From: Eledone cirrhosa
Taxonomy: Eukaryota
Reading direction: 5' to 3'
Assembly (NCBI GenBank): GCA_964016885.1
Contig: OZ024754.1
Location: forward strand, 33,852,001-33,916,000
DNA: 64,000 bases
Part shown: piece by piece, positions 4,285 through 32,275 of the stretch
How positions within the stretch are numbered: position 1 is the stretch's first letter
Layout of the letters: each line of letters opens with the position of its first letter
Made by a program: the position numbers and the translations under genes
Notes under the pieces: model-generated
The model's database searches: none
What the model was told of the DNA's origin: nothing
What the model saw: only the letters and a program-made list of their open reading frames with translations

Positions 4285-4335
4285 GGCTTCCTGATGATTT
4301 CTCCCGAATGAAACAGTTCTAGTCATGTAGAAGCC
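4285..4335 (+). ncRNA. Type I hammerhead ribozyme fold (Penelope/retrozyme-like)
   Basis: Stem I GGCUUC/GAAGCC, core CUGAUGA (4291-4297), short stem II UUC/GAA, GAAA (4310-4313), stem III ACA/UGU, cleavage triplet GUA; degenerate second copy at ~61637-61690. Confidence 0.6.
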
Positions 4336-4487
4336 ATTTCTATATTAAATATTTATATATATATATATGAAAAGATTCAGGACCCCGATGCTTGAGTTCC
4401 GGCCGTTTCGATACCCCAAGTATCGAGTACTCTGGTGCGCTATGGTCCACCTGGTATCTTACCACACCTTCTTTGTTATATATATAT

Positions 4488-5252: not shown

Positions 5253-5302
<50 letters not shown>

Positions 5303-5638
5303 TGTTGACTTCTTGCTTACATTAATTTCTCTATTTCCATTTATATATTTATACTCGGAATTTTTCCTTGAGTGCTTAAAATTATTTGTGACTAATCCCG
5401 GTTTTTTTTTTTTTAACCGCGATAATATTGATTTATGCTGAACTCCATATCTTTTGTTGATTTTTTTTCGGAATGTTTTGACTGCTGTTTCTTGTAAACG
5501 GACATTCGTCTCATTCTGACGTCACTAGCCCTGTCTCCATGTGTGTTTATTAATTCAATTCCACACGAGGTTTGACTAGCCTGCTTTTAAATTCCCCTTT
5601 GGCATATTTTAGCTGTGGAGCTTAGTTAACGTTGTTGA

Positions 5639-5719
5639 GCACTACTGAGGAACGACTCCAACCGTGACTAACCCCACTGAAAAGTTTCGTGAAATAGTCT
5701 TTTTAAGACTATATAGTGC
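5639..5719 (+). ncRNA. Type I hammerhead ribozyme
   Basis: Stem I GCACUA/UAGUGC, core CUGAGGA (5645-5651), stem II ACGA/UCGU, GAAA (5691-5694), stem III AUAGUCUU/AAGACUAU, cleavage triplet AUA (5711-5713). All three helices pair perfectly. Confidence 0.85.
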
Positions 5720-5963
5720 ATTTGTAGATTTTTCCAAATTGACGGATAAGTATTTACTCTTAATTTTATTTTGAGTTAAGATTCTATTGGTTTTTCCCCG
5801 GATTACACAAAATCTGTGGATAAAATTTCTGGTCTTGACTTGTTTTGAATTGGGATTAAATTATTTTCCCATATCTTACGTTAAATATTTTTCATCTTGA
5901 CGTAATAGTCACTTATATGTCTGAATTACTGTTGGCTTCTTGCTTACATTAATTTCTCTATTT

Positions 5964-6149
5964 GAGGGCGGTGGATTGGCAGTATCGGTAGAGGGTCGGA
6001 CGCCATGCTTTCCAGCATAGTTACGTCCCTTTACCATCTGAGTTCAAATCCCGCCGAGGTTGACTTTGCCTTTCATCCTTACGGGGTCGATAAAATAAAG
6101 TACCAGTAATGCACTGGTAATTGCTGGCCTTGTGCCTAAAGTAGAAACA
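5964..6149 (+). mobile_element. Full-length tRNA-derived SINE (family A) with 16-bp TSD
   Basis: A-box TGGCAGTATCGG, B-box GAGTTCAAATCC; TSD ATTAATTTCTCTATTT at 5948-5963 and 6150-6165. Confidence 0.9.
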
Positions 6150-6167
6150 ATTAATTTCTCTATTTTC

Positions 6168-6210
<43 letters not shown>

Positions 6211-6214
<4 letters not shown>

Positions 6215-6354
6215 ATATGACTTTTAACGGTCTGAAAAATTAAAGTAAATTTATTTTCATTTTCGAACGTCGTGTTTACATTTTGTGTGTGTGTTTAGAT
6301 CTAAATTAGTTACTGAGATTAAAGACAAAATCAGAGCCTCTGTCGTTTTAACTG

Positions 6355-6398
<44 letters not shown>

Positions 6399-6843
6399 TA
6401 TATGTGTGTGTGTGTAGTTGACAGTTAAGAGAAGAGTACTCAATACCGAAGTAATCTTGTAATGAGGCTTGCAGATGGTGAGTCCGCCATCCTGGACGCT
6501 GCTGCTTTGTAGAAGTCCCAAATCGAAGCCGTGACACTCTCGTCTCCATCATTCAGCAGGGATTTTGCCAGGCAGCCGCATCATCTCCTATGGTTGGGCT
6601 TCCTATTCGGAAATTGAGGAAATTGAAGGTGGGATTTACGTTCATGATGTTGTGGTGCACGAACGGAACTTTGTAGATCCTGCGGACCCTGATGTGCACA
6701 CACAGCTCATAGAGAACACATGGAGCCGTGCAAAGAAGAAGCTTCGTCGCCAGCATGTTTCGTTTAAACACAAAATGTAAACACGACGTTCGAAAATGAA
6801 AATAAATTTACTTTCATTATTGCGACCTAAAAGTCATGTATGC
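6211..6843 (+). mobile_element. Merlin/IS1595(ISXO2)-like DNA transposon deletion derivative
   Basis: Perfect 47-bp inverted repeat 6242-6288/6768-6814 plus outer IR GCATATATGACTTTTA; frameshifted transposase remnant CFVEVPNRSRDTLVSII/LPGSRIISYGWASY..VVHERNFVDP..VHTQLIENTW. Confidence 0.85.
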
Positions 6844-7951: not shown

Positions 7952-9244
7952 CTAGTATAGATAAGGAATAATTCGATACTTCACTGTACTGCAATATTTT
8001 TTCCAACTATTTCCATATTTCTTTTCACATGCAGCCGAATCTCGTCTCTCCCGGTGGATTAATAAGATGGTCATATAAATCGGATAAAAATAAGGAATGA
8101 TGCTTCCGAAGCCACAAGTCAAAGACCAGCAAACAGCCATTATAATATCTCCGAAATAATTAGGTTTCCGACACATGCCCCACCATCCAGACACTAGCAA
8201 TCGACGGTTGCATGCAGTAGGGATACTTTGTAAATTTGCTACCGACGGATGTTTGGGATCACGTCTAAATTTATTTTTTTGGGAATTAGATGAACGAAAA
8301 ATAAAGTAACCAACAAAATTTATAATACATAAAGTAATCAAAATATACCACGGTGGGCTGTATGACTGGGTCATAAGGTATTTACCCTGTAGCGGATACA
8401 AAAATGGTACCCAGACAAGGTCGCCAAAACACAACATAAAACCGAATCCATCATGAGTCAAGTCCATAGTAGTTAATATAGCATCTTCAAACCACAATGC
8501 ATCTAGTACGTAGATACTCTGGAAGATGGTCACAAGTAAGAGAGAAGGTGATGGACCAAAATTATCTAATAAAGATTTTACAACAAAACTAAGATTTATA
8601 ATAACCCAACCGATCAATCCTGGGCGCATTTCACAGAAAAACTTCAGATCGAAAGAACCTATCCTTGGATTCAGTTCACGTCCGATGAAAAAATCGTAAA
8701 AAAGATTGCCAGAGTTTCCTCCTGGGGCAAGTTTCGAAGGTGTTACTTTCAAAGATTTTATGTAAAGTAAAATACTTGAAATGTAGCTAAATATTAAAGC
8801 ACATATCATCAATTGAAAAAACTTGTCATAAATAATGCTTACTGGAAAACCCATGTGGACAGCAGCTAAAAAAACAATTATAGATATTAATAAACACAGG
8901 AATCCGTTACATCTATACTGGAGACGTGTACCGTCTTTTAGGGGGACACCTAAGTGTAATTTTCCAATAGGTAGTAGAGCCAATAAAGATTGTAAAATCA
9001 TCCAGAGTAAAAACATCGATATCCCGGTCCAATCGATAAAATATGTCCACCAATTATAAATGAAAGGTAATTGACCGAATGTACATGTTTGTTCATTACA
9101 CATAAGATTCATGACAATAACAATACATGGTAAAGCTATGATGTTCATTGCAGTTCCAAACACACCACCAAATTCTAAATCAGTTGTTTTTTCAATTTTG
9201 TTGGAACCTTTTTTATTTAGGCGGTTGTTTCGGTAAGTTTCCAT
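7952..9244 (-). CDS. TM7SF2: Delta(14)-sterol reductase (ERG24/TM7SF2/LBR sterol-reductase domain), single exon, 430 aa
   Basis: Intact ORF with motifs LEFGG, GN.FYDFFIGRELNPR..FDLKFFCEMRPG, TTMDLTHDGFGFMLCFGDLVWVPF, LLVSGWWG..R.PNYFGD, KYRIIPYLY; no N-terminal Tudor domain. TM7SF2 versus LBR orthology is not resolvable by eye. Confidence 0.93.
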   Translation of the reverse strand: METYRNNRLNKKGSNKIEKTTDLEFGGVFGTAMNIIALPCIVIVMNLMCNEQTCTFGQLPFIYNWWTYFIDWTGISMFLLWMILQSLLALLPIGKLHLGVPLKDGTRLQYRCNGFLCLLISIIVFLAAVHMGFPVSIIYDKFFQLMICALIFSYISSILLYIKSLKVTPSKLAPGGNSGNLFYDFFIGRELNPRIGSFDLKFFCEMRPGLIGWVIINLSFVVKSLLDNFGPSPSLLLVTIFQSIYVLDALWFEDAILTTMDLTHDGFGFMLCFGDLVWVPFLYPLQGKYLMTQSYSPPWYILITLCIINFVGYFIFRSSNSQKNKFRRDPKHPSVANLQSIPTACNRRLLVSGWWGMCRKPNYFGDIIMAVCWSLTCGFGSIIPYFYPIYMTILLIHRERRDSAACEKKYGNSWKKYCSTVKYRIIPYLY

Positions 9245-9582
9245 GGTGCTTTCTTCTTATTATTATTATAAAATTGTTATAAAATTATTTTCTTTTAAGA
9301 TAAAAACAAAAAGGTTGGATATTGAATGAAGTGCTCGCAAATTACCAAGACTTCCGCTATAAATTGTTTTGCTAGGAAACAAACCTGGAACTTCCTGTGA
9401 ACACGTGGCTAGTTATCTGGCCAATCAGATATCAGCTAGACGGAAGGAAATTCGAAGATGGTCGTAAATGTTTGTCGTCTGCGGAGATGATGGTTAAACT
9501 ATTGTATCAACTAATTATTTAACTTCTTGTGAGATCGATTCACGATATTTGTCGCGTATTCTAAAGAAAAACATTAATCAAT
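9245..9582. promoter_or_regulatory. Bidirectional promoter between sterol reductase and PPP2R3C
   Basis: 338 bp between divergent ATGs; CpG-enriched; ETS-like CTTCCG/CGGAAG (9351, 9441), E-box CACGTG (9402), CCAAT (9421), YY1-like AAGATGG (9455). Confidence 0.7.
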
Positions 9583-14028: not shown

Positions 14029-17000
14029 GAATAGAGCCAGAGATAAATGTTGTGAGACTGGGTGAGGAGAATAGAGCCAGTGATGAATGTTGTGAGACTG
14101 GGTGAGGGGAATAGAGCCAGTGATGAATGTTGTGAGACTGGGTGAGGAGAATAGAGCCAGTGATGAAGGTTGTGAGACTGGGTGAGGGGAATAGAGCCAG
14201 TGATGAATGTTGTGAGACTGGGTGAGGGGAATAGAGCCAGTGATGAATGTTGTGAGACTGGGTGAGGGGAATAGAGCCAGTGATGAAGGTTGTGAGACTG
14301 GGTGAGGAGAATAGAGCCAGTGATGAAGGTTGTGAGACTGGGTGAGGAGAATAGAGCCAGTGATGAAGGTTGTGAGACTGGGTGAGGGGAATAGAGCCAG
14401 TGATGAAGGTTGTGAGACTGGGTGAGGGGAATAGAGCCAGTGATGAAGGTTGTGAGACTGGGTGAGGGGAATAGAGCCAGTGATGAAGGTTGTGAGACTG
14501 GGTGAGGAGAATAGAGCCAGTGATGAAGGTTGTGAGACTGGGTGAGGGGAATAGAGCCAGTGATGAATGTTGTGAGACTGGGTGAGGAGAATAGAGCCAG
14601 TGATGAATGTTGTGAGACTGGGTGAGGGGAATAGAGCCAGTGATGAATGTTGTGAGACTGGGTGAGGGGAATAGAGCCAGTGATGAAGGTTGTGAGACTG
14701 GGTGAGGGGAATAGAGCCAGTGATAAATGTTGTGAGACTGGGTGAGGGGAATAGAGCCAGTGATGAAGGTTGTGAGACTGGGTGAGGGGAATAGAGCCAG
14801 TGATGAAGGTTGTGAGACTGGGTGAGGGGAATAGAGCCAGTGATGAAGGTTGTGAGACTGGGTGAGGGGAATAGAGCCAGTGATGAATGTTGTAAGACTG
14901 GGTGAGGGGAATAGAGCCAGTGATGAAGGTTGTGAGACTGGGTGAGGGGAATAGAGCCAGTGATGAAGGTTGTGAGACTGGGTGAGGGGAATAGAGCCAG
15001 TGATGAATGTTGTGAGACTGGGTGAGGGGAATAGAGCCAGTGATGAAGGTTGTGAGACTGGGTGAGAGGAATAGAGCCAGTGATGAATGTTGTGAGACTG
15101 GGTGAGGGGAATAGAGCCAGTGATAAATGTTGTGAGACTGGGTGAGAGGAATAGAGCCAGTGATGAAGGTTGTGAGACTGGGTGAGAGGAATAGAGCCAG
15201 TGATGAATGTTGTGAGACTGGGTGAGGAGAATAGAGCCAGTGATGAATGTTGTGAGACTGGGTGAGGAGAATAGAGCCAGTGATGAATGTTGTGAGACTG
15301 GGTGAGGGGAATAGAGCCAGTGATGAATGTTGTGAGACTGGGTGAGGAGAATAGAGCCAGTGATGAATGTTGTGAGACTGGGTGAGGAGAATAGAGCCAG
15401 TGATGAAGGTTGTAAGACTGGGTGAGGAGAATAGAGCCAGTGATGAATGTTGTGAGACTGGGTGAGGGGAATAGAGCCAGTGATGAATGTTGTGAGACTG
15501 GGTGAGGGGAATAGAGCTAGTGATGAAGGTTGTGAGACTGGGTGAGGGGAATAGAGCCAGTGATAAATGTTGTGAGACTGGGTGAGAGGAATAGAGCCAG
15601 TGATGAATGTTGTCAGACTGGGTGAGGAGAATAGAGCCAGTGATGAATGTTGTGAGACTGGTTGAGGGGAATAGAGCCAGTGATGAAGGTTGTGAGACTG
15701 GGTGAGAGGAATAGAGCCAGTGATGAAGGTTGTGAGACTGGGTGAGGGGAATAGAGCCAGTGATGAAGGTTGTGAGACTGGATGAGGGGAATAGAGCCAG
15801 TGATGAAGGTTGTGAGACTGGGTGAGGGGAATAGAGCCAGTGATGAAGGTTGTGAGACTGGGTGAGGGGAATAGAGCCAGTGATGAAGGTTGTGAGACTG
15901 GGTGAGGGGAATAGAGCCAGTGATAAATGTTGTGAGACTGGGTGAGGGGAATAGAGCCGGTGATGAATGTTGTGAGACTGGGTGAGGAGAATAGAGCCAG
16001 TGATAAATGTTGTGAGACTGGGTGAGGGGAATAGAGCCAGTGATGAAGGTTGTGAGACTGGGTGAGGGGAATAGAGCCAGTGATGAAGGTTGTGAGACTG
16101 GGTGAGGGGAATAGAGCCAGTGATGAAGGTTGTGAGACTGGGTGAGGGGAATAGAGCCAGTGATGAAGGTTGTGAGACTGGGTGAGGGGAATAGAGCCAG
16201 TGATGAAGGTTGTGAGACTGGGTGAGGGGAATAGAGCCAGTGATAAATGTTGTGAGACTGGGTGAGGGGAATAGAGCCAGTGATGAAGGTTGTGAGACTG
16301 GGTGAGGGGAATAGAGCCAGTGATGAAGGTTGTGAGACTGGGTGAGGGGAATAGAGCCAGTGATGAAGGTTGTGAGACTGGGTGAGGGGAATAGAGCCAG
16401 TGATGAAGGTTGTGAGACTGGGTGAGGGGAATAGAGCCAGTGATAAATGTTGTGAGACTGGGTGAGGGGAATAGAGCCAGTGATGAAAGTTGTGAGACTG
16501 GGTGAGGGGAATAGAGCCAGTGATGAAGGTTGTGAGACTGGGTGAGGGGAATAGAGCCAGTGATGAAGGTTGTGAGACTGGGTGAGGGGAATAGAGCCAG
16601 TGATGAAGGTTGTGAGACTGGGTGAGGGGAATAGAGCCAGTGATAAATGTTGTGAGACTGGGTGAGGGGAATAGAGCCAGTGATGAAGGTTGTGAGACTG
16701 GGTGAGGGGAATAGAGCCAGTGATGAAGGTTGTGAGACTGGGTGAGGGGAATAGAGCCAGTGATGAAGGTTGTGAGACTGGGTGAGGGGAATAGAGCCAG
16801 TGATGAAGGTTGTGAGACTGGGTGAGGGGAATAGAGCCAGTGATGAAGGTTGTGAGACTGGGTGAGGGGAATAGAGCCAGTGATGAAGGTTGTGAGACTG
16901 GGTGAGGGGAATAGAGCCAGTGATGAAGGTTGTGAGACTGGGTGAGGGGAATAGAGCCAGTGATAAATGTTGTGAGACTGGGTGAGGGGAATAGAGCCGG

Positions 17001-17575
17001 TGATGAATGTTGTGAGACTGGGTGAGGGGAATAGAGCCGGTGATGAATGTTGTGAGACTGGGTGAGGAGAATAGAGCCAGTGATGAAGGTTGTGAGACTG
17101 GGTGAGGGGAATAGAGCCAGTGATGAAGGTTGTGAGACTGGGTGAGGGGAATAGAGCCAGTGATGAAGGTTGTGAGACTGGGTGAGGGGAATAGAGCCAG
17201 TGATGAAGGTTGTGAGACTGGGTGAGGGGAATAGAGCCAGTGATGAAGGTTGTGAGACTGGGTGAGGGGAATAGAGCCAGTGATGAAGGTTGTGAGACTG
17301 GGTGAGGGGAATAGAGCCAGTGATGAAGGTTGTGAGACTGGGTGAGGGGAATAGAGCCAGTGATAAATGTTGTGAGACTGGGTGAGGGGAATAGAGCCAG
17401 TGATGAAGGTTGTGAGACTGGGTGAGGGGAATAGAGCCAGTGATGAAGGTTGTGAGACTGGGTGAGGAGAATAGAGCCAGTGATGAAGGTTGTGAGACTG
17501 GGTGAGAGGAATAGAGCCAGTGATAAATGTTGTGAGACTGGGTGAGAGGAATAGAGCCAGTGATGATGGTTGTGA
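14029..17575. repeat. 40-bp G-rich minisatellite (~88 copies) in PPP2R3C intron 3
   Basis: Unit AATAGAGCCAGTGATGAAGGTTGTGAGACTGGGTGAGGGG; degenerate copies extend to ~17700. Confidence 0.97.
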
Positions 17576-20336: not shown

Positions 20337-23300
20337 CCAGGAGATAGTATCAGCCATAGAAAGACTCATAGAAACATTGTTACTTTGGTCTGATCTGACA
20401 ATCAGATTTCCAGGAGATAGTATCAGCCATAGAAAGACCAATAGAAACATTGTTACTTTGGTCTGATCTGACAATCAGATGTCCAGGAGATAGTATCAGC
20501 CATAGAAAGACCAATAGAAACATTGTTACTTTGGTCTGATCTGACAATCAGATTTCCAGGAGATAGTATCAGCCATAGAAAGACCAATAGAAACATTGTT
20601 ACTTTGGTCTGATCTGACAATCAGATGTCCAGGAGATAGCATCAGCCATAGAAAGACCCATAGAAACATTGTTACTTTGGTCTGATCTGACAATCAGATG
20701 TCCAGGAGATAGCATCAGCCATAGAAAGACCCATAGAAACATTGTTACTTTGGTCTGATCTGACAATCAGATTTCCAGGAGATAGTATCAGCCATAGAAA
20801 GACCAATAGAAACATTGTTACTTTGGTCTGATCTGACAATCAGATGTCCAGGAGATAGTATCAGCCATAGAAAGACCCATAGAAACATTGTTACTTTGGT
20901 CTGATCTGACAATCAGATTTCCAGGAGATAGTATCAGCCATAGAAAGACCCATAGAAACATTGTTACTTTGGTCTGATCTGACAATCAGATTTCCAGGAG
21001 ATAGTATCAGCCATAGAAAGACCAATAGAAACATTGTTACTTTGGTCTGATCTGACAATCAGATGTCCAGGAGATAGTATCAGCCATAGAAAGACTCATA
21101 GAAACATTGTTACTTTGGTCTGATCTGACAATCAGATGTCTAGGAGATAGTATCAGCCATAGAAAGACCCATAGAAACATTGTTACTTTGGTCTGATCTG
21201 ACAATCAGATGTCTAGGAGATAGTATCAGCCATAGAAAGACCCATAGAAACATTGTTACTTTGGTCTGATCTGACAATCAGATGTCCAGGAGATAGCATC
21301 AGCCATAGAAAGACCCATAGAAACATTGTTACTTTGGTCTGATCTGACAATCAGATGTCTAGGAGATAGTATCAGCCATAGAAAGACTCATAGAAACATT
21401 GTTACTTTGGTCTGATCTGACAATCAGATGTCCAGGAGATAGTATCAGCCATAGAAAGACTCATAGAAACATTGTTACTTTGGTCTGATCTGACAATCAG
21501 ATGTCCAGGAGATAGTATCAGCCATAGAAAGACTCATAGAAACATTGTTACTTTGGTCTGATCTGACAATCAGATGTCCAGGAGATAGCATCAGCCATAG
21601 AAAGACCCATAGAAACATTGTTACTTTGGTCTGATCTGACAATCAGATGTCCAGGAGATAGCATCAGCCATAGAAAGACCCATAGAAACATTGTTACTTT
21701 GGTCTGATCTGACAATCAGATGTCCAGGAGATAGTATCAGCCATAGAAAGACCAATAGAAACATTGTTACTTTGGTCTGATCTGACAATCAGATGTCTAG
21801 GAGATAGTATCAGCCATAGAAAGACCAATAGAAACATTGTTACTTTGGTCTGATCTGACAATCAGATGTCCAGGAGATAGCATCAGCCATAGAAAGACCA
21901 ATAGAAACATTGTTACTTTGGTCTGATCTGACAATCAGATGTCCAGGAGATAGTATCAGCCATAGAAAGACCCATAGAAACATTGTTACTTTGGTCTGAT
22001 CTGACAATCAGATGTCCAGGAGATAGTATCAGCCATAGAAAGACCCATAGAAACATTGTTACTTTGGTCTGATCTGAGAATCAGATGTCCAGGAGATAGC
22101 ATCAGCCATAGAAAGACCCATAGAAACATTGTTACTTTGGTCTGATCTGACAATCAGATGTCCAGGAGATAGTATCAGCCATAGAAAGACCCATAGAAAC
22201 ATTGTTACTTTGGTCTGATCTGACAATCAGATGTCCAGGAGATAGCATCAGCCATAGAAAGACCCATAGAAACATTGTTACTTTGGTCTGATCTGACAAT
22301 CAGATGTCCAGGAGATAGCATCAGCCATAGAAAGACCCATAGAAACATTGTTACTTTGGTCTGATCTGACAATCAGATGTCCAGGAGATAGCATCAGCCA
22401 TAGAAAGACCAATAGAAACATTGTTACTTTGGTCTGATCTGACAATCAGATGTCCAGGAGATAGTATCAGCCATAGAAAGACCAATAGAAACATTGTTAC
22501 TTTGGTCTGATCTGACAATCAGATGTCCAGGAGATAGTATCAGCCATAGAAAGACCAATAGAAACATTGTTACTTTGGTCTGATCTGACAATCAGATGTC
22601 CAGGAGATAGCATCAGCCATAGAAAGACCCATAGAAACATTGTTACTTTGGTCTGATCTGACAATCAGATTTCCAGGAGATAGCATCAGCCATAGAAAGA
22701 CCCATAGAAACATTGTTACTTTGGTCTGATCTGACAATCAGATGTCCAGGAGATAGTATCAGCCATAGAAAGACCCATAGAAACATTGTTACTTTGGTCT
22801 GATCTGACAATCAGATGTCCAGGAGATAGCATCAGCCATAGAAAGACCCATAGAAACATTGTTACTTTGGTCTGATCTGACAATCAGATGTCCAGGAGAT
22901 AGCATCAGCCATAGAAAGACTCATAGAAACATTGTTACTTTGGTCTGATCTGACAATCAGATGTCCAGGAGATAGTATCAGCCATAGAAAGACCAATAGA
23001 AACATTGTTACTTTGGTCTGATCTGACAATCAGATGTCCAGGAGATAGCATCAGCCATAGAAAGACCCATAGAAACATTGTTACTTTGGTCTGATCTGAC
23101 AATCAGATGTCCAGGAGATAGCATCAGCCATAGAAAGACTCATAGAAACATTGTTACTTTGGTCTGATCTGACAATCAGATGTCCAGGAGATAGTATCAG
23201 CCATAGAAAGACCAATAGAAACATTGTTACTTTGGTCTGATCTGACAATCAGATGTCCAGGAGATAGTATCAGCCATAGAAAGACCCATAGAAACATTGT

Positions 23301-26300
23301 TACTTTGGTCTGATCTGACAATCAGATGTCCAGGAGATAGTATCAGCCATAGAAAGACTCATAGAAACATTGTTACTTTGGTCTGATCTGACAATCAGAT
23401 GTCCAGGAGATAGTATCAGCCATAGAAAGACCCATAGAAACATTGTTACTTTGGTCTGATCTGACAATCAGATGTCTAGGAGATAGCATCAGCCATAGAA
23501 AGACCCATAGAAACATTGTTACTTTGGTCTGATCTGACAATCAGATGTCCAGGAGATAGTATCAGCCATAGAAAGACCCATAGAAACATTGTTACTTTGG
23601 TCTGATCTGACAATCAGATGTCCAGGAGATAGTATCAGCCATAGAAAGACCAATAGAAACATTGTTACTTTGGTCTGATCTGACAATCAGATGTCCAGGA
23701 GATAGTATCAGCCATAGAAAGACCCATAGAAACATTGTTACTTTGGTCTGATCTGACAATCAGATGTCCAGGAGATAGTATCAGCCATAGAAAGACCCAT
23801 AGAAACATTGTTACTTTGGTCTGATCTGACAATCAGATGTCCAGGAGATAGTATCAGCCATAGAAAGACCCATAGAAACATTGTTACTTTGGTCTGATCT
23901 GACAATCAGATGTCCAGGAGATAGCATCAGCCATAGAAAGACCAATAGAAACATTGTTACTTTGGTCTGATCTGACAATCAGATGTCCAGGAGATAGCAT
24001 CAGCCATAGAAAGACCCATAGAAACATTGTTACTTTGGTCTGATCTGACAATCAGATGTCCAGGAGATAGTATCAGCCATAGAAAGACCCATAGAAACAT
24101 TGTTACTTTGGTCTGATCTGACAATCAGATGTCCAGGAGATAGTATCAGCCATAGAAAGACCCATAGAAACATTGTTACTTTGGTCTGATCTGACAATCA
24201 GATGTCCAGGAGATAGTATCAGCCATAGAAAGACCCATAGAAACATTGTTACTTTGGTCTGATCTGACAATCAGATGTCCAGGAGATAGCATCAGCCATA
24301 GAAAGACCAATAGAAACATTGTTACTTTGGTCTGATCTGACAATCAGATGTCCAGGAGATAGCATCAGCCATAGAAAGACCCATAGAAACATTGTTACTT
24401 TGGTCTGATCTGACAATCAGATGTCCAGGAGATAGCATCAGCCATAGAAAGACTCATAGAAACATTGTTACTTTGGTCTGATCTGACAATCAGATGTCCA
24501 GGAGATAGCATCAGCCATAGAAAGACCCATAGAAACATTGTTACTTTGGTCTGATCTGACAATCAGATGTCCAGGAGATAGTATCAGCCATAGAAAGACT
24601 CATAGAAACATTGTTACTTTGGTCTGATCTGACAATCAGATGTCCAGGAGATAGTATCAGCCATAGAAAGACCCATAGAAACATTGTTACTTTGGTCTGA
24701 TCTGACAATCAGATGTCTAGGAGATAGCATCAGCCATAGAAAGACCCATAGAAACATTGTTACTTTGGTCTGATCTGACAATCAGATGTCCAGGAGATAG
24801 TATCAGCCATAGAAAGACCCATAGAAACATTGTTACTTTGGTCTGATCTGACAATCAGATGTCCAGGAGATAGTATCAGCCATAGAAAGACCAATAGAAA
24901 CATTGTTACTTTGGTCTGATCTGACAATCAGATGTCCAGGAGATAGTATCAGCCATAGAAAGACCCATAGAAACATTGTTACTTTGGTCTGATCTGACAA
25001 TCAGATGTCCAGGAGATAGTATCAGCCATAGAAAGACCAATAGAAACATTGTTACTTTGGTCTGATCTGACAATCAGATGTCCAGGAGATAGTATCAGCC
25101 ATAGAAAGACCCATAGAAACATTGTTACTTTGGTCTGATCTGACAATCAGATGTCCAGGAGATAGTATCAGCCATAGAAAGACCCATAGAAACATTGTTA
25201 CTTTGGTCTGATCTGACAATCAGATGTCCAGGAGATAGTATCAGCCATAGAAAGACCCATAGAAACATTGTTACTTTGGTCTGATCTGACAATCAGATGT
25301 CCAGGAGATAGTATCAGCCATAGAAAGACCAATAGAAACATTGTTACTTTGGTCTGATCTGACAATCAGATGTCCAGGAGATAGCATCAGCCATAGAAAG
25401 ACCAATAGAAACATTGTTACTTTGGTCTGATCTGACAATCAGATGTCCAGGAGATAGCATCAGCCATAGAAAGACCCATAGAAACATTGTTACTTTGGTC
25501 TGATCTGACAATCAGATTTCCAGGAGATAGCATCAGCCATAGAAAGACCCATAGAAACATTGTTACTTTGGTCTGATCTGACAATCAGATCTCCAGGAGA
25601 TAGTATCAGCCATAGAAAGACCCATAGAAACATTGTTACTTTGGTCTGATCTGACAATCAGATGTCCAGGAGATAGCATCAGCCATAGAAAGACCCATAG
25701 AAACATTGTTACTTTGGTCTGATCTGACAATCAGATGTCCAGGAGATAGTATCAGCCATAGAAAGACCCATAGAAACATTGTTACTTTGGTCTGATCTGA
25801 CAATCAGATGTCCAGGAGATAGCATCAGCCATAGAAAGACCCATAGAAACATTGTTACTTTGGTCTGATCTGACAATCAGATGTCCAGGAGATAGTATCA
25901 GCCATAGAAAGACCCATAGAAACATTGTTACTTTGGTCTGATCTGACAATCAGATGTCCAGGAGATAGCATCAGCCATAGAAAGACCCATAGAAACATTG
26001 TTACTTTGGTCTGATCTGACAATCAGATGTCCAGGAGATAGTATCAGCCATAGAAAGACCAATAGAAACATTGTTACTTTGGTCTGATCTGACAATCAGA
26101 TGTCCAGGAGATAGCATCAGCCATAGAAAGACCCATAGAAACATTGTTACTTTGGTCTGATCTGACAATCAGATGTCCAGGAGATAGTATCAGCCATAGA
26201 AAGACCCATAGAAACATTGTTACTTTGGTCTGATCTGACAATCAGATGTCCAGGAGATAGCATCAGCCATAGAAAGACCCATAGAAACATTGTTACTTTG

Positions 26301-29300
26301 GTCTGATCTGACAATCAGATGTCCAGGAGATAGTATCAGCCATAGAAAGACCCATAGAAACATTGTTACTTTGGTCTGATCTGACAATCAGATGTCCAGG
26401 AGATAGTATCAGCCATAGAAAGACCCATAGAAACATTGTTACTTTGGTCTGATCTGACAATCAGATGTCCAGGAGATAGCATCAGCCATAGAAAGACCCA
26501 TAGAAACATTGTTACTTTGGTCTGATCTGACAATCAGATGTCCAGGAGATAGTATCAGCCATAGAAAGACCCATAGAAACATTGTTACTTTGGTCTGATC
26601 TGACAATCAGATGTCCAGGAGATAGCATCAGCCATAGAAAGACCCATAGAAACATTGTTACTTTGGTCTGATCTGACAATCAGATGTCCAGGAGATAGTA
26701 TCAGCCATAGAAAGACCAATAGAAACATTGTTACTTTGGTCTGATCTGACAATCAGATGTCCAGGAGATAGCATCAGCCATAGAAAGACCCATAGAAACA
26801 TTGTTACTTTGGTCTGATCTGACAATCAGATGTCCAGGAGATAGTATCAGCCATAGAAAGACCCATAGAAACATTGTTACTTTGGTCTGATCTGACAATC
26901 AGATGTCCAGGAGATAGTATCAGCCATAGAAAGACCCATAGAAACATTGTTACTTTGGTCTGATCTGACAATCAGATGTCCAGGAGATAGTATCAGCCAT
27001 AGAAAGACCCATAGAAACATTGTTACTTTGGTCTGATCTGACAATCAGATGTCCAGGAGATAGTATCAGCCATAGAAAGACCAATAGAAACATTGTTACT
27101 TTGGTCTGATCTGACAATCAGATGTCCAGGAGATAGCATCAGCCATAGAAAGACTCATAGAAACATTGTTACTTTGGTCTGATCTGACAATCAGATGTCC
27201 AGGAGATAGTATCAGCCATAGAAAGACCCATAGAAACATTGTTACTTTGGTCTGATCTGACAATCAGATGTCCAGGAGATAGTATCAGCCATAGAAAGAC
27301 CCATAGAAACATTGTTACTTTGGTCTGATCTGACAATCAGATGTCCAGGAGATAGCATCAGCCATAGAAAGACCCATAGAAACATTGTTACTTTGGTCTG
27401 ATCTGACAATCAGATGTCCAGGAGATAGCATCAGCCATAGAAAGACCCATAGAAACATTGTTACTTTGGTCTGATCTGACAATCAGATGTCCAGGAGATA
27501 GTATCAGCCATAGAAAGACCCATAGAAACATTGTTACTTTGGTCTGATCTGACAATCAGATGTCCAGGAGATAGTATCAGCCATAGAAAGACCCATAGAA
27601 ACATTGTTACTTTGGTCTGATCTGACAATCAGATGTCCAGGAGATAGCATCAGCCATAGAAAGACCCATAGAAACATTGTTACTTTGGTCTGATCTGACA
27701 ATCAGATGTCCAGGAGATAGTATCAGCCATAGAAAGACCCATAGAAACATTGTTACTTTGGTCTGATCTGACAATCAGATGTCCAGGAGATAGTATCAGC
27801 CATAGAAAGACTCATAGAAACATTGTTACTTTGGTCTGATCTGACAATCAGATGTCCAGGAGATAGTATCAGCCATAGAAAGACCCATAGAAACATTGTT
27901 ACTTTGGTCTGATCTGACAATCAGATGTCCAGGAGATAGCATCAGCCATAGAAAGACTCATAGAAACATTGTTACTTTGGTCTGATCTGACAATCAGATG
28001 TCCAGGAGATAGCATCAGCCATAGAAAGACTCATAGAAACATTGTTACTTTGGTCTGATCTGACAATCAGATGTCCAGGAGATAGTATCAGCCATAGAAA
28101 GACTCATAGAAACATTGTTACTTTGGTCTGATCTGACAATCAGATGTCCAGGAGATAGTATCAGCCATAGAAAGACCCATAGAAACATTGTTACTTTGGT
28201 CTGATCTGACAATCAGATGTCCAGGAGATAGTATCAGCCATAGAAAGACCCATAGAAACATTGTTACTTTGGTCTGATCTGACAATCAGATGTCCAGGAG
28301 ATAGTATCAGCCATAGAAAGACCAATAGAAACATTGTTACTTTGGTCTGATCTGACAATCAGATGTCCAGGAGATAGTATCAGCCATAGAAAGACCCATA
28401 GAAACATTGTTACTTTGGTCTGATCTGACAATCAGATGTCCAGGAGATAGTATCAGCCATAGAAAGACCCATAGAAACATTGTTACTTTGGTCTGATCTG
28501 ACAATCAGATGTCCAGGAGATAGTATCAGCCATAGAAAGACCCATAGAAACATTGTTACTTTGGTCTGATCTGACAATCAGATGTCCAGGAGATAGTATC
28601 AGCCATAGAAAGACCAATAGAAACATTGTTACTTTGGTCTGATCTGACAATCAGATGTCCAGGAGATAGCATCAGCCATAGAAAGACCAATAGAAACATT
28701 GTTACTTTGGTCTGATCTGACAATCAGATGTCCAGGAGATAGCATCAGCCATAGAAAGACCCATAGAAACATTGTTACTTTGGTCTGATCTGACAATCAG
28801 ATTTCCAGGAGATAGCATCAGCCATAGAAAGACCCATAGAAACATTGTTACTTTGGTCTGATCTGACAATCAGATCTCCAGGAGATAGTATCAGCCATAG
28901 AAAGACCCATAGAAACATTGTTACTTTGGTCTGATCTGACAATCAGATGTCCAGGAGATAGCATCAGCCATAGAAAGACCCATAGAAACATTGTTACTTT
29001 GGTCTGATCTGACAATCAGATGTCCAGGAGATAGTATCAGCCATAGAAAGACCCATAGAAACATTGTTACTTTGGTCTGATCTGACAATCAGATGTCCAG
29101 GAGATAGCATCAGCCATAGAAAGACCCATAGAAACATTGTTACTTTGGTCTGATCTGACAATCAGATGTCCAGGAGATAGTATCAGCCATAGAAAGACCC
29201 ATAGAAACATTGTTACTTTGGTCTGATCTGACAATCAGATGTCCAGGAGATAGTATCAGCCATAGAAAGACCCATAGAAACATTGTTACTTTGGTCTGAT

Positions 29301-32275
29301 CTGACAATCAGATGTCCAGGAGATAGTATCAGCCATAGAAAGACTAATAGAAACATTGTTACTTTGGTCTGATCTGACAATCAGATGTCCAGGAGATAGC
29401 ATCAGCCATAGAAAGACTCATAGAAACATTGTTACTTTGGTCTGATCTGACAATCAGATGTCCAGGAGATAGTATCAGCCATAGAAAGACCCATAGAAAC
29501 ATTGTTACTTTGGTCTGATCTGACAATCAGATGTCCAGGAGATAGTATCAGCCATAGAAAGACCCATAGAAACATTGTTACTTTGGTCTGATCTGACAAT
29601 CAGATGTCCAGGAGATAGCATCAGCCATAGAAAGACCCATAGAAACATTGTTACTTTGGTCTGATCTGACAATCAGATGTCCAGGAGATAGCATCAGCCA
29701 TAGAAAGACCCATAGAAACATTGTTACTTTGGTCTGATCTGACAATCAGATGTCCAGGAGATAGTATCAGCCATAGAAAGACCCATAGAAACATTGTTAC
29801 TTTGGTCTGATCTGACAATCAGATGTCCAGGAGATAGTATCAGCCATAGAAAGACCCATAGAAACATTGTTACTTTGGTCTGATCTGACAATCAGATGTC
29901 CAGGAGATAGCATCAGCCATAGAAAGACCCATAGAAACATTGTTACTTTGGTCTGATCTGACAATCAGATGTCCAGGAGATAGTATCAGCCATAGAAAGA
30001 CTCATAGAAACATTGTTACTTTGGTCTGATCTGACAATCAGATGTCCAGGAGATAGTATCAGCCATAGAAAGACCCATAGAAACATTGTTACTTTGGTCT
30101 GATCTGACAATCAGATGTCCAGGAGATAGCATCAGCCATAGAAAGACTCATAGAAACATTGTTACTTTGGTCTGATCTGACAATCAGATGTCCAGGAGAT
30201 AGCATCAGCCATAGAAAGACTCATAGAAACATTGTTACTTTGGTCTGATCTGACAATCAGATGTCCAGGAGATAGTATCAGCCATAGAAAGACTCATAGA
30301 AACATTGTTACTTTGGTCTGATCTGACAATCAGATGTCCAGGAGATAGTATCAGCCATAGAAAGACCCATAGAAACATTGTTACTTTGGTCTGATCTGAC
30401 AATCAGATGTCCAGGAGATAGTATCAGCCATAGAAAGACTCATAGAAACATTGTTACTTTGGTCTGATCTGACAATCAGATGTCCAGGAGATAGCATCAG
30501 CCATAGAAAGACTCATAGAAACATTGTTACTTTGGTCTGATCTGACAATCAGATGTCCAGGAGATAGTATCAGCCATAGAAAGACCCATAGAAACATTGT
30601 TACTTTGGTCTGATCTGACAATCAGATGTCCAGGAGATAGTATCAGCCATAGAAAGACTCATAGAAACATTGTTACTTTGGTCTGATCTGACAATCAGAT
30701 GTCCAGGAGATAGCATCAGCCATAGAAAGACTCATAGAAACATTGTTACTTTGGTCTGATCTGACAATCAGATGTCCAGGAGATAGTATCAGCCATAGAA
30801 AGACCCATAGAAACATTGTTACTTTGGTCTGATCTGACAATCAGATGTCCAGGAGATAGTATCAGCCATAGAAAGACTCATAGAAACATTGTTACTTTGG
30901 TCTGATCTGACAATCAGATGTCCAGGAGATAGTATCAGCCATAGAAAGACCCATAGAAACATTGTTACTTTGGTCTGATCTGACAATCAGATGTCTAGGA
31001 GATAGCATCAGCCATAGAAAGACCAATAGAAACATTGTTACTTTGGTCTGATCTGACAATCAGATGTCCAGCAGATAGCATCAGCCATAGAAAGACCCAT
31101 AGAAACATTGTTACTTTGGTCTGATCTGACAATCAGATGTCCAGGAGATAGCATCAGCCATAGAAAGACCAATAGAAACATTGTTACTTTGGTCTGATCT
31201 GACAATCAGATGTCCAGGAGATAGTATCAGCCATAGAAAGACCAATAGAAACATTGTTACTTTGGTCTGATCTGACAATCAGATGTCCAGGAGATAGTAT
31301 CAGCCATAGAAAGACCCATAGAAACATTGTTACTTTGGTCTGATCTGACAATCAGATGTCCAGGAGATAGCATCAGCCATAGAAAGACCAATAGAAACAT
31401 TGTTACTTTGGTCTGATCTGACAATCAGATGTCCAGGAGATAGCATCAGCCATAGAAAGACCCATAGAAACATTGTTACTTTGGTCTGATCTGACAATCA
31501 GATGTCCAGGAGATAGCATCAGCCATAGAAAGACCCATAGAAACATTGTTACTTTGGTCTGATCTGACAATCAGATGTCCAGGAGATAGTATCAGCCATA
31601 GAAAGACCCATAGAAACATTGTTACTTTGGTCTGATCTGACAATCAGATGTCCAGGAGATAGCATCAGCCATAGAAAGACCCATAGAAACATTGTTACTT
31701 TGGTCTGATCTGACAATCAGATGTCCAGGAGATAGCATCAGCCATAGAAAGACCCATAGAAACATTGTTACTTTGGTCTGATCTGACAATCAGATGTCCA
31801 GGAGATAGTATCAGCCATAGAAAGACCCATAGAAACATTGTTACTTTGGTCTGATCTGACAATCAGATGTCCAGGAGATAGTATCAGCCATAGAAAGACC
31901 CATAGAAACATTGTTACTTTGGTCTGATCTGACAATCAGATGTCCAGGAGATAGTATCAGCCATAGAAAGACCCATAGAAACATTGTTACTTTGGTCTGA
32001 TCTGACAATCAGATGTCCAGGAGATAGTATCAGCCATAGAAAGACTCATAGAAACATTGTTACTTTGGTCTGATCTCACAATCAGATGTCCAGGAGATAG
32101 TATCAGCCATAGAAAGACCAATAGAAACATTGTTACTTTGGTCTGATCTGACAATCAGATTTCCAGGAGATAGTATCAGCCATAGAAAGACCCATAGAAA
32201 CATTGTTACTTTGGTCTGATCTGACAATCAGATTTCCAGGAGATAGTATCAGCCATAGAAAGACCAATAGAAACA
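20337..32275. repeat. 73-bp satellite array (~163 copies, 11.9 kb) filling PPP2R3C intron 5
   Basis: Unit CCAGGAGATAGTATCAGCCATAGAAAGACCCATAGAAACATTGTTACTTTGGTCTGATCTGACAATCAGATGT; no indels seen, variation at about five positions. Confidence 0.98.

Follow-up and report, generated by a model that had tools for sequence, protein, structure and literature searches.

The closest described relatives of the element reported here are metazoan retrozymes and Penelope-like retroelements. A retrozyme cycle, in which transcripts of repeated units are cut by their own ribozymes, closed into circles and returned to the genome by reverse transcription, has been proposed in PMC7229834. Retrozymes are tied to Penelope repeats in 10.64898/2026.07.22.740005, which also reports that eight of nine predicted retrozymes showed no cleavage. 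According to PMC11167929, a Penelope reverse transcriptase (RT) used uncut RNA, and cleavage was not required. The linker of the Neptune clade is connected with (TA)n targeting in PMC8557442, where the connection is offered as a hypothesis.

We have analysed a window of 64,000 nucleotides from the genome of Eledone cirrhosa, and coordinates below are positions in this window. It contains one copy of a repeat family whose non-coding, 627-nt units each carry a hammerhead ribozyme. The copy is likely a non-autonomous retrozyme that was put into (TA)n by the RT and endonuclease of a Neptune-type Penelope element. Among the papers listed for octopus hammerhead ribozymes and cephalopod retrozymes, none on this family was found; supplements may list it.

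Structure of the window copy and its hammerhead

One full unit occupies positions 5300 to 5926 on the forward strand and is preceded by a (TA)n target at 5256-5299 (the TA run in the repeat scan extends over 5256-5301). Unit positions (q) are counted from q1 = 5300, the point at which this copy is truncated at its 5' end. The repeat period is 627, and the opening sequence recurs at 5927, one base before the position originally predicted (5928), with unit positions 1-37 at 5927-5963 identical to 5300-5336 in 36 of 37 bases. A SINE of 186 nt (5964..6149, forward strand) inserted later at this point, as had been foreseen, and lies outside the element proper; it is bounded by a 16-bp target duplication (5948-5963 and 6150-6165). 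Since the repeat resumes beyond the SINE, at 6150-6175, the SINE splits a terminal redundancy of about 47 nt. The remainder carries the fixed 3' end of the family near unit position 47, which merges into TA, and the predicted (TA)n flank on the 3' side was located at 6171-6209. The same base of the unit tail (q22) was hit by this SINE at least 64 times genome-wide in one orientation (L363-L392 among them); SINE lengths and duplications (0-22 bp) vary among these cases, which are thus independent insertions. The SINE generally targets ATTAWT-like sites.

Units contain short stop-to-stop frames only, with no RT or GIY-YIG match inside them. A candidate promoter motif, TGACGTCA, which we take to be CRE-like, is present at 5517-5524 on the forward strand; its GACGTCA is preserved in 44 or more of the 64 near-full copies. 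A weak internal repeat pairs 5445-5469 with 5869-5893 (80% over 25 nt, spacing 424). The window copy is a monomer, comprising one unit, the tail and a single ribozyme, and is 95-97% identical to the best other copies. It is a decayed end product, ordinary decayed repeat DNA, and nothing points to a host role. The nearby ERG4/ERG24-family open reading frame (ORF) is on the opposite strand, with the copy about 1.8 kb beyond its stop, and the ribozyme would be antisense there.

Several neighbouring features of the window were recorded. The ERG4/ERG24 ORF runs uninterrupted for 434 codons at 7952-9256 on the reverse strand (PF01222, E 1e-139); it is single-exon and possibly a retrogene. Inverted repeats of 60 bp flank a fragment of an ISXO2-like transposase (PF12762) at 6229-6827, presumably a remnant of a Merlin-type DNA transposon. 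A second, degenerate hammerhead-like motif (CUGAUGA ... GAAA) lies at about 4285-4345 on the forward strand, in another small element inside TA runs. Homogeneous minisatellites with 93-98% matches are found at 1-807 (56 bp), 14029-17575 (40 bp) and 20337-32275 (73 bp).

The hammerhead was located by descriptor search at 5639-5719 on the forward strand and agrees in every part with the original prediction. Helix I has 6 bp (GCACUA at 5639-5644 with UAGUGC at 5714-5719), and is followed by the core CUGAGGA (5645-5651), a helix II of 4 bp closing a loop of 31 nt (ACGA at 5652-5655 with UCGU at 5687-5690), the core GAAA (5691-5694) and a helix III of 8 bp (5694-5701 with 5705-5712). The triplet AUA at 5711-5713 places the predicted cut at 5713/5714. 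The copy thus has the CUGANGA, GAAA and UH elements of a type I hammerhead, together with three helices and an open-ended helix I. It was the single strict descriptor match in the 64-kb window; when the window was shuffled with dinucleotide composition kept, a looser match arose in 1 of 200 shuffles and an equally strong hammerhead in none. As a sequence motif the hammerhead is therefore confirmed. An Rfam search gave no hammerhead match, neither at the gathering score nor at E<=10, for which the long loop II is our guess at a cause.

Folding predictions were less favourable than pairing on paper. The original prediction held that all three helices pair perfectly, in a textbook ribozyme that needs no dimer. 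The pairing does hold when written out, and the 8-bp helix III supports independence from dimerization; in ViennaRNA ensembles of the window copy, however, the probability of helix II was near zero in all five contexts tested and helix I was lost in two of the five, under an energy model that ignores the core and tertiary contacts. A competing hairpin at 5675-5691 (forward strand) is predicted to sequester G12 together with the 3' side of helix II; the minimum free energy (MFE) fold, which contains this hairpin, lies 3.9 kcal/mol below the ribozyme fold. In subfamilies a, b and c (defined below) the ribozyme fold lies above the MFE by a median of 3.9, 1.1 and 2.1 kcal/mol, respectively, and the hairpin is predicted to dominate in 31 of 86 intact copies. 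Helix II, with 4 bp (3 bp in subfamily c), is weak and is predicted to be outcompeted by the hairpin in the monomer. Each of the six hairpin pairs is possible in 108 or more of 114 copies. Because these pairs are kept without covariation, a role as a switch is hypothetical; a small hairpin in loop II is conserved, likewise without covariation.

A long hairpin was also predicted at 5748-5865 on the forward strand (window z -3.4). Of the 53 pairs in the predicted fold of 5720-5899, 33 are unchanged between subfamilies and 20 change, 13 of the latter being broken in at least one subfamily. A conserved rod-like fold of the unit was considered and rejected: the circular z of the window copy is -4.2, yet conservation of its pairs is poor and the alignment yields only a weak fold.

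Family structure, insertion ends and conservation of the ribozyme

A search of the 3.0-Gb genome returned 3,486 candidate copies, of which the best 40 scored are 90-97% identical. A 19-mer from the ribozyme has 1,026 exact genome matches, and two tail-variant motifs have 616 and 593; the reversed controls gave none. The family therefore has at least 1,026 copies. Four subfamilies of the 627-nt unit, labelled by helix I, were distinguished, the fourth of them rich in multimers. Among the other three, identity is 90-91% within and 82-87% between subfamilies. Contigs from two sequencing runs of one sample contained only variants already known.

Insertion anatomy was examined in all exact tail matches on one contig, from which 131 insertions with a terminal tail match were kept and internal-only matches dropped. 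The 3' side runs into TA in 128 of these insertions, and a TA run is found at the 5' junction in 83. Most (117/131) are shorter than one unit, including 39 that consist of the tail only (about 60 nt), and 14 are longer than one unit. In a set of 80 copies anchored on the ribozyme, from which array loci were omitted, the 3' end falls at q38-60 of the next unit in 71; an alternative fixed 3' end, some 60 nt further upstream, was seen in one of the 80. The 5' ends, in contrast, are scattered across the whole unit. Position 5300 is thus a chance truncation point of one copy, and the defined direct repeat that had been proposed to bound the unit was not upheld. Unit positions 340-363 are slightly enriched in 5' ends (8/54), which may be chance over 27 bins. 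Neither an LTR pair nor a target duplication is present, as the ends merge into TA and the 5' ends vary. Both orientations occur within one locus in only 3 of 288 loci, so that the family is mostly one-armed. The Penelope insertion signature, namely a fixed internal 3' end, a partial tandem and a microsatellite target, is found in this family.

Consecutive units that each carry a ribozyme occur in the family (L159/L160 and arrays) and are absent from the window copy, whose single cleavage site makes excision of a monomer by this copy impossible. Two complete ribozymes are found in only 2 of the 131 sampled insertions. Satellite arrays of about 15 (L191+L356), 43 (L423-L426) and 7 units (L427) were also observed, with both intact and broken ribozymes among their units. 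Higher-order dimers within arrays are 99-100% alike, and a repeated, spreading internal deletion of about 73 bp is seen; the two larger arrays grew by DNA-level duplication. Even the arrays end at the family 3' site in TA.

The ribozyme is under selection and is kept by compensatory change across subfamilies. Many loci were chosen by the exact 19-mer, which spans GAAA and part of helix III, so the conservation figures that follow are inflated in those two segments. In 114 copies (105 distinct, from a set of 175), 94.9% of 1,872 cells are paired with 62 double changes, against 25-54% paired in a slid-partner control. Three haplotypes of helix I were seen, represented by 26, 43 and 27 of the 175 copies, and mixed forms are few. 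Since these haplotypes agree with a tree made without the ribozyme, they reflect two successive compensatory changes; the changes in helix I are two lineage events, not 62. Helices II and III are conserved and have no lineage-level double changes. Subfamily-diagnostic changes fall on 0 of 11 core positions and 0 of 14 helix III positions, compared with 79 of 486 outside them (63 of 66 copies assigned). The free core position 7 is T, G, C or A in 64, 32, 15 and 3 of the 114 copies, and core and helices are intact in 87 of the 114.

The original prediction had staked itself on the conservation of core and helices among homologues, and this conservation was found across copies. The copy number, tandem arrays and covariation that it asked after also proved to be there, with two compensatory changes in helix I. 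Its central claim, a retroelement of the retrozyme/Penelope type that is non-coding and bears a ribozyme, is accordingly supported by the family copies. Mean divergence between the two rounds of a single insertion is 4.1% (30 copies); given this and the 95-97% identity of the closest relatives of the window copy, the family looks quiet at present.

Proposed mobilization and choice of template

The genome is rich in Penelope copies with a C-terminal GIY-YIG domain and the Neptune linker CxxxxCxxC, and their ORFs carry RT. Using PF01541, the best 150 of 10,596 GIY-YIG candidates were scored and 70 loci were compared. A ribozyme motif was detectable in 44 of the 70 loci, with a TA run no more than 600 nt downstream in 41 of the 44; these runs lie at family-specific sites that follow a pyrimidine tract. 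This Neptune-type layout of a ribozyme and a fixed end leading into TA is the layout of the 627-nt family, and from it we infer a Penelope mover. When an autonomous partner was sought by nhmmer and blastn among the 70 loci drawn from the 10,596 candidates, only another copy of the 627-nt family was recovered. No ORF continuous with the unit was found by tblastn in any locus examined, and neighbouring elements are separate. In the four listed cases of a Neptune ORF upstream (L207, L208, L224, L030), each belongs to a complete other element with TA runs between. As no partner sharing sequence with the unit was found among the loci compared and the adjacent ORFs are separate insertions, the partner is deduced from its signature. 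We nevertheless assign the family to the retrozyme/Penelope type with high confidence.

Other Penelope and hammerhead families were noted in the course of this search. At least five Neptune-type Penelope families are represented (L031-L060, L091-L130), and ORFs of 938 and 1,096 codons occur among them. Minimal hammerheads with a U3-A8 core variant are found in families A, B and C, and alternative 3' ends 45-68 nt apart in families B, C and D. Further hammerhead families with a palindromic helix III lie in TA runs near L108, L117, L125, L126, L129, L143, L144, L146, L155 and L157.

It is hypothesized that a source locus with at least two units would be transcribed, that the ribozymes would cut the transcript and that a host ligase would likely close a unit-length circle. 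The Penelope endonuclease would nick (TA)n, and the TA end would prime at a UA-rich site near unit position 47. The RT would then run backwards via the ribozyme junction and halt at varying positions, in many cases at a further TA-like motif and in some after more than a single round. A few insertions would later give rise to satellites through DNA-level duplication.

An RT that starts near q47 reaches the cleavage site after 260 nt. None of the 59 insertions that extend that far stops at unit positions 409-420, where the cleavage site lies. A cut linear RNA would stop the RT there, so the template was either RNA that had stayed uncut or a circle re-ligated after cleavage; template jumping is a less likely cause of the read-through. 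Given the retrozyme/Penelope assignment, we lean towards a circle. Read-through alone is no proof of one, because insertion from uncut RNA is described in PMC11167929. First and second rounds show no systematic differences in 31 copies. Mean divergence within copies is 4.1%, compared with 2.9% between nearest neighbours, and 16 private variants are shared against 175 unshared; as divergence within copies is not the lower of the two, this comparison fails to separate a circle from a uniform tandem. Three loci (L167, L281, L282) begin where a cut template would, and TA microhomology gives the same picture. Exact TA junctions at the cleavage site number two genome-wide, with no matched control pattern.

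The same element and enzyme could have used linear RNA that was transcribed from a tandem source locus and left uncut, with no circle needed and a ribozyme that is slow or restrained by the hairpin. We regard this as possible, though we do not favour it. The Penelope RT of PMC11167929 starts internally on unprocessed RNA, and ribozyme mutants there still insert; the cleavage-site read-through fits equally, tandem arrays of about 43, 15 and 7 units are present, and the median energies given above for subfamilies a, b and c point to a restrained ribozyme. Retention of the ribozyme by compensatory change is hard to explain if cutting merely destroys the template. Moreover, dispersed copies are not nested inside the two large arrays and do not derive from them, and the two units of dispersed dimers mostly cluster (together in 6 of 8, adjacent in 1, apart in 1). 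Near-intact Neptune ORFs (938 and 1,096 codons) in the same genome allow a direct test of circular against uncut templates.

Three other readings fare worse. The idea, also entertained in the original prediction, that the unit serves an autonomous Penelope element as its pseudo-LTR, the copies being the 5'-truncated ends of that element, is improbable. The layout does match local Neptune ends, with a ribozyme followed by a fixed end into TA, and truncated Penelope copies are common according to 10.64898/2026.07.22.740005, but copies longer than one unit extend upstream into another unit and never into an ORF. No coding sequence with RT and GIY-YIG is continuous with the repeat in the loci examined, the four listed upstream Neptune ORFs belong to complete other elements beyond TA runs, and the local Neptune ribozymes are minimal and unrelated in sequence to the unit. 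That a LINE or RTE element moved the unit as a conventional SINE-like parasite is very improbable: the fixed 3' end and 5' truncation, which target-primed reverse transcription produces generally, are seen here, whereas the 3' end lies inside a permuted repeat, some copies are longer than one unit and a poly(A) or simple-repeat tail is not seen. The genuine SINE adjoining the window copy uses ATTAWT targets with duplications, unlike the 627-nt element. A DNA satellite spread by recombination, with the hammerhead as passenger, would account for the large arrays, in which near-identical higher-order dimers and the repeated deletion of about 73 bp record DNA-level duplication. This is scarcely credible for the family as a whole and is largely refuted by the polarity of its ends: most copies are dispersed and shorter than a unit (117/131), with one end fixed and the other truncated, even arrays finish at the family 3' site in TA, and the ribozyme covaries.

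Returning to the circular template, a more speculative extension concerns the loop II hairpin. It might be a built-in off-switch that captures helix II and G12 and so protects the ligated circle; the family would then be a long-lived retrozyme lineage whose hammerhead works alone by virtue of its 8-bp helix III, and whose off-switch allows an RT borrowed from Neptune to roll across the junction. We consider this doubtful. If it were true, dispersed copies would record rolling-circle retrotransposition and would show the block on re-cleavage of the circle that must exist according to PMC7229834.

Comparison with known systems

A plant LTR retrozyme, with a type III hammerhead in LTRs and a 4-bp duplication, was rejected as a model, since the topology here is type I and there is no LTR pair or duplication. 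The Poseidon element PAc of Anolis, as described in PMC11167929, resembles the family in an internal, fixed RT start downstream of the hammerhead, in AT-rich targets and in copies that span the cleavage site; PAc is autonomous and starts at sites without homology to the target, whereas the start site here is TA-like.

The canonical minimal hammerheads of metazoans and Penelope elements in PMC4209133 share with the present ribozyme a 6-bp helix I, a 4-bp helix II, a C3-G8 core and type I topology. Their helix III is palindromic and 1-2 bp long, as is usual in the animal hammerheads described there, so the non-palindromic, 8-bp helix III found here is a real difference. The 31-nt loop II, which offers a competing fold, also sets this ribozyme apart.

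The Neptune-clade elements of PMC8557442 have the (TA)n targets, the lack of a visible target duplication and the partial-tandem layout of this family. In both, the ribozyme lies upstream of a 3' end that is fixed and rich in pyrimidines and has a TA-like internal copy. The 627-nt family differs in having no ORF and a full rather than a minimal ribozyme. Apart from some 15 terminal bases, it has no detectable homology to the 70 local GIY-YIG loci, and one 3' end dominates, compared with two or three in local families B, C and D.

By its testable features, as read from the genome, the family belongs to the metazoan non-LTR retrozymes (PMC7229834; 10.64898/2026.07.22.740005). Its unit is longer than the 170-400 nt RNAs that PMC7229834 describes; the 8-bp helix III and the predominance of dispersed, 5'-truncated copies of less than one unit are further differences. 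With these retrozymes it shares a non-coding repeat of low GC content, a single type I hammerhead in each unit, the occurrence of monomers, dimers and arrays, co-occurrence with Penelope elements and a length of 627 nt within the 51-972 bp range of 10.64898/2026.07.22.740005. The family offers subfamilies in a dated series, in which the ribozyme changed stepwise by compensation, along with insertion ends of the Neptune type; all 59 informative insertions read through the cleavage site. It adds invertebrate genomic support for the dependence of retrozymes on Penelope enzymes that has already been proposed in print.
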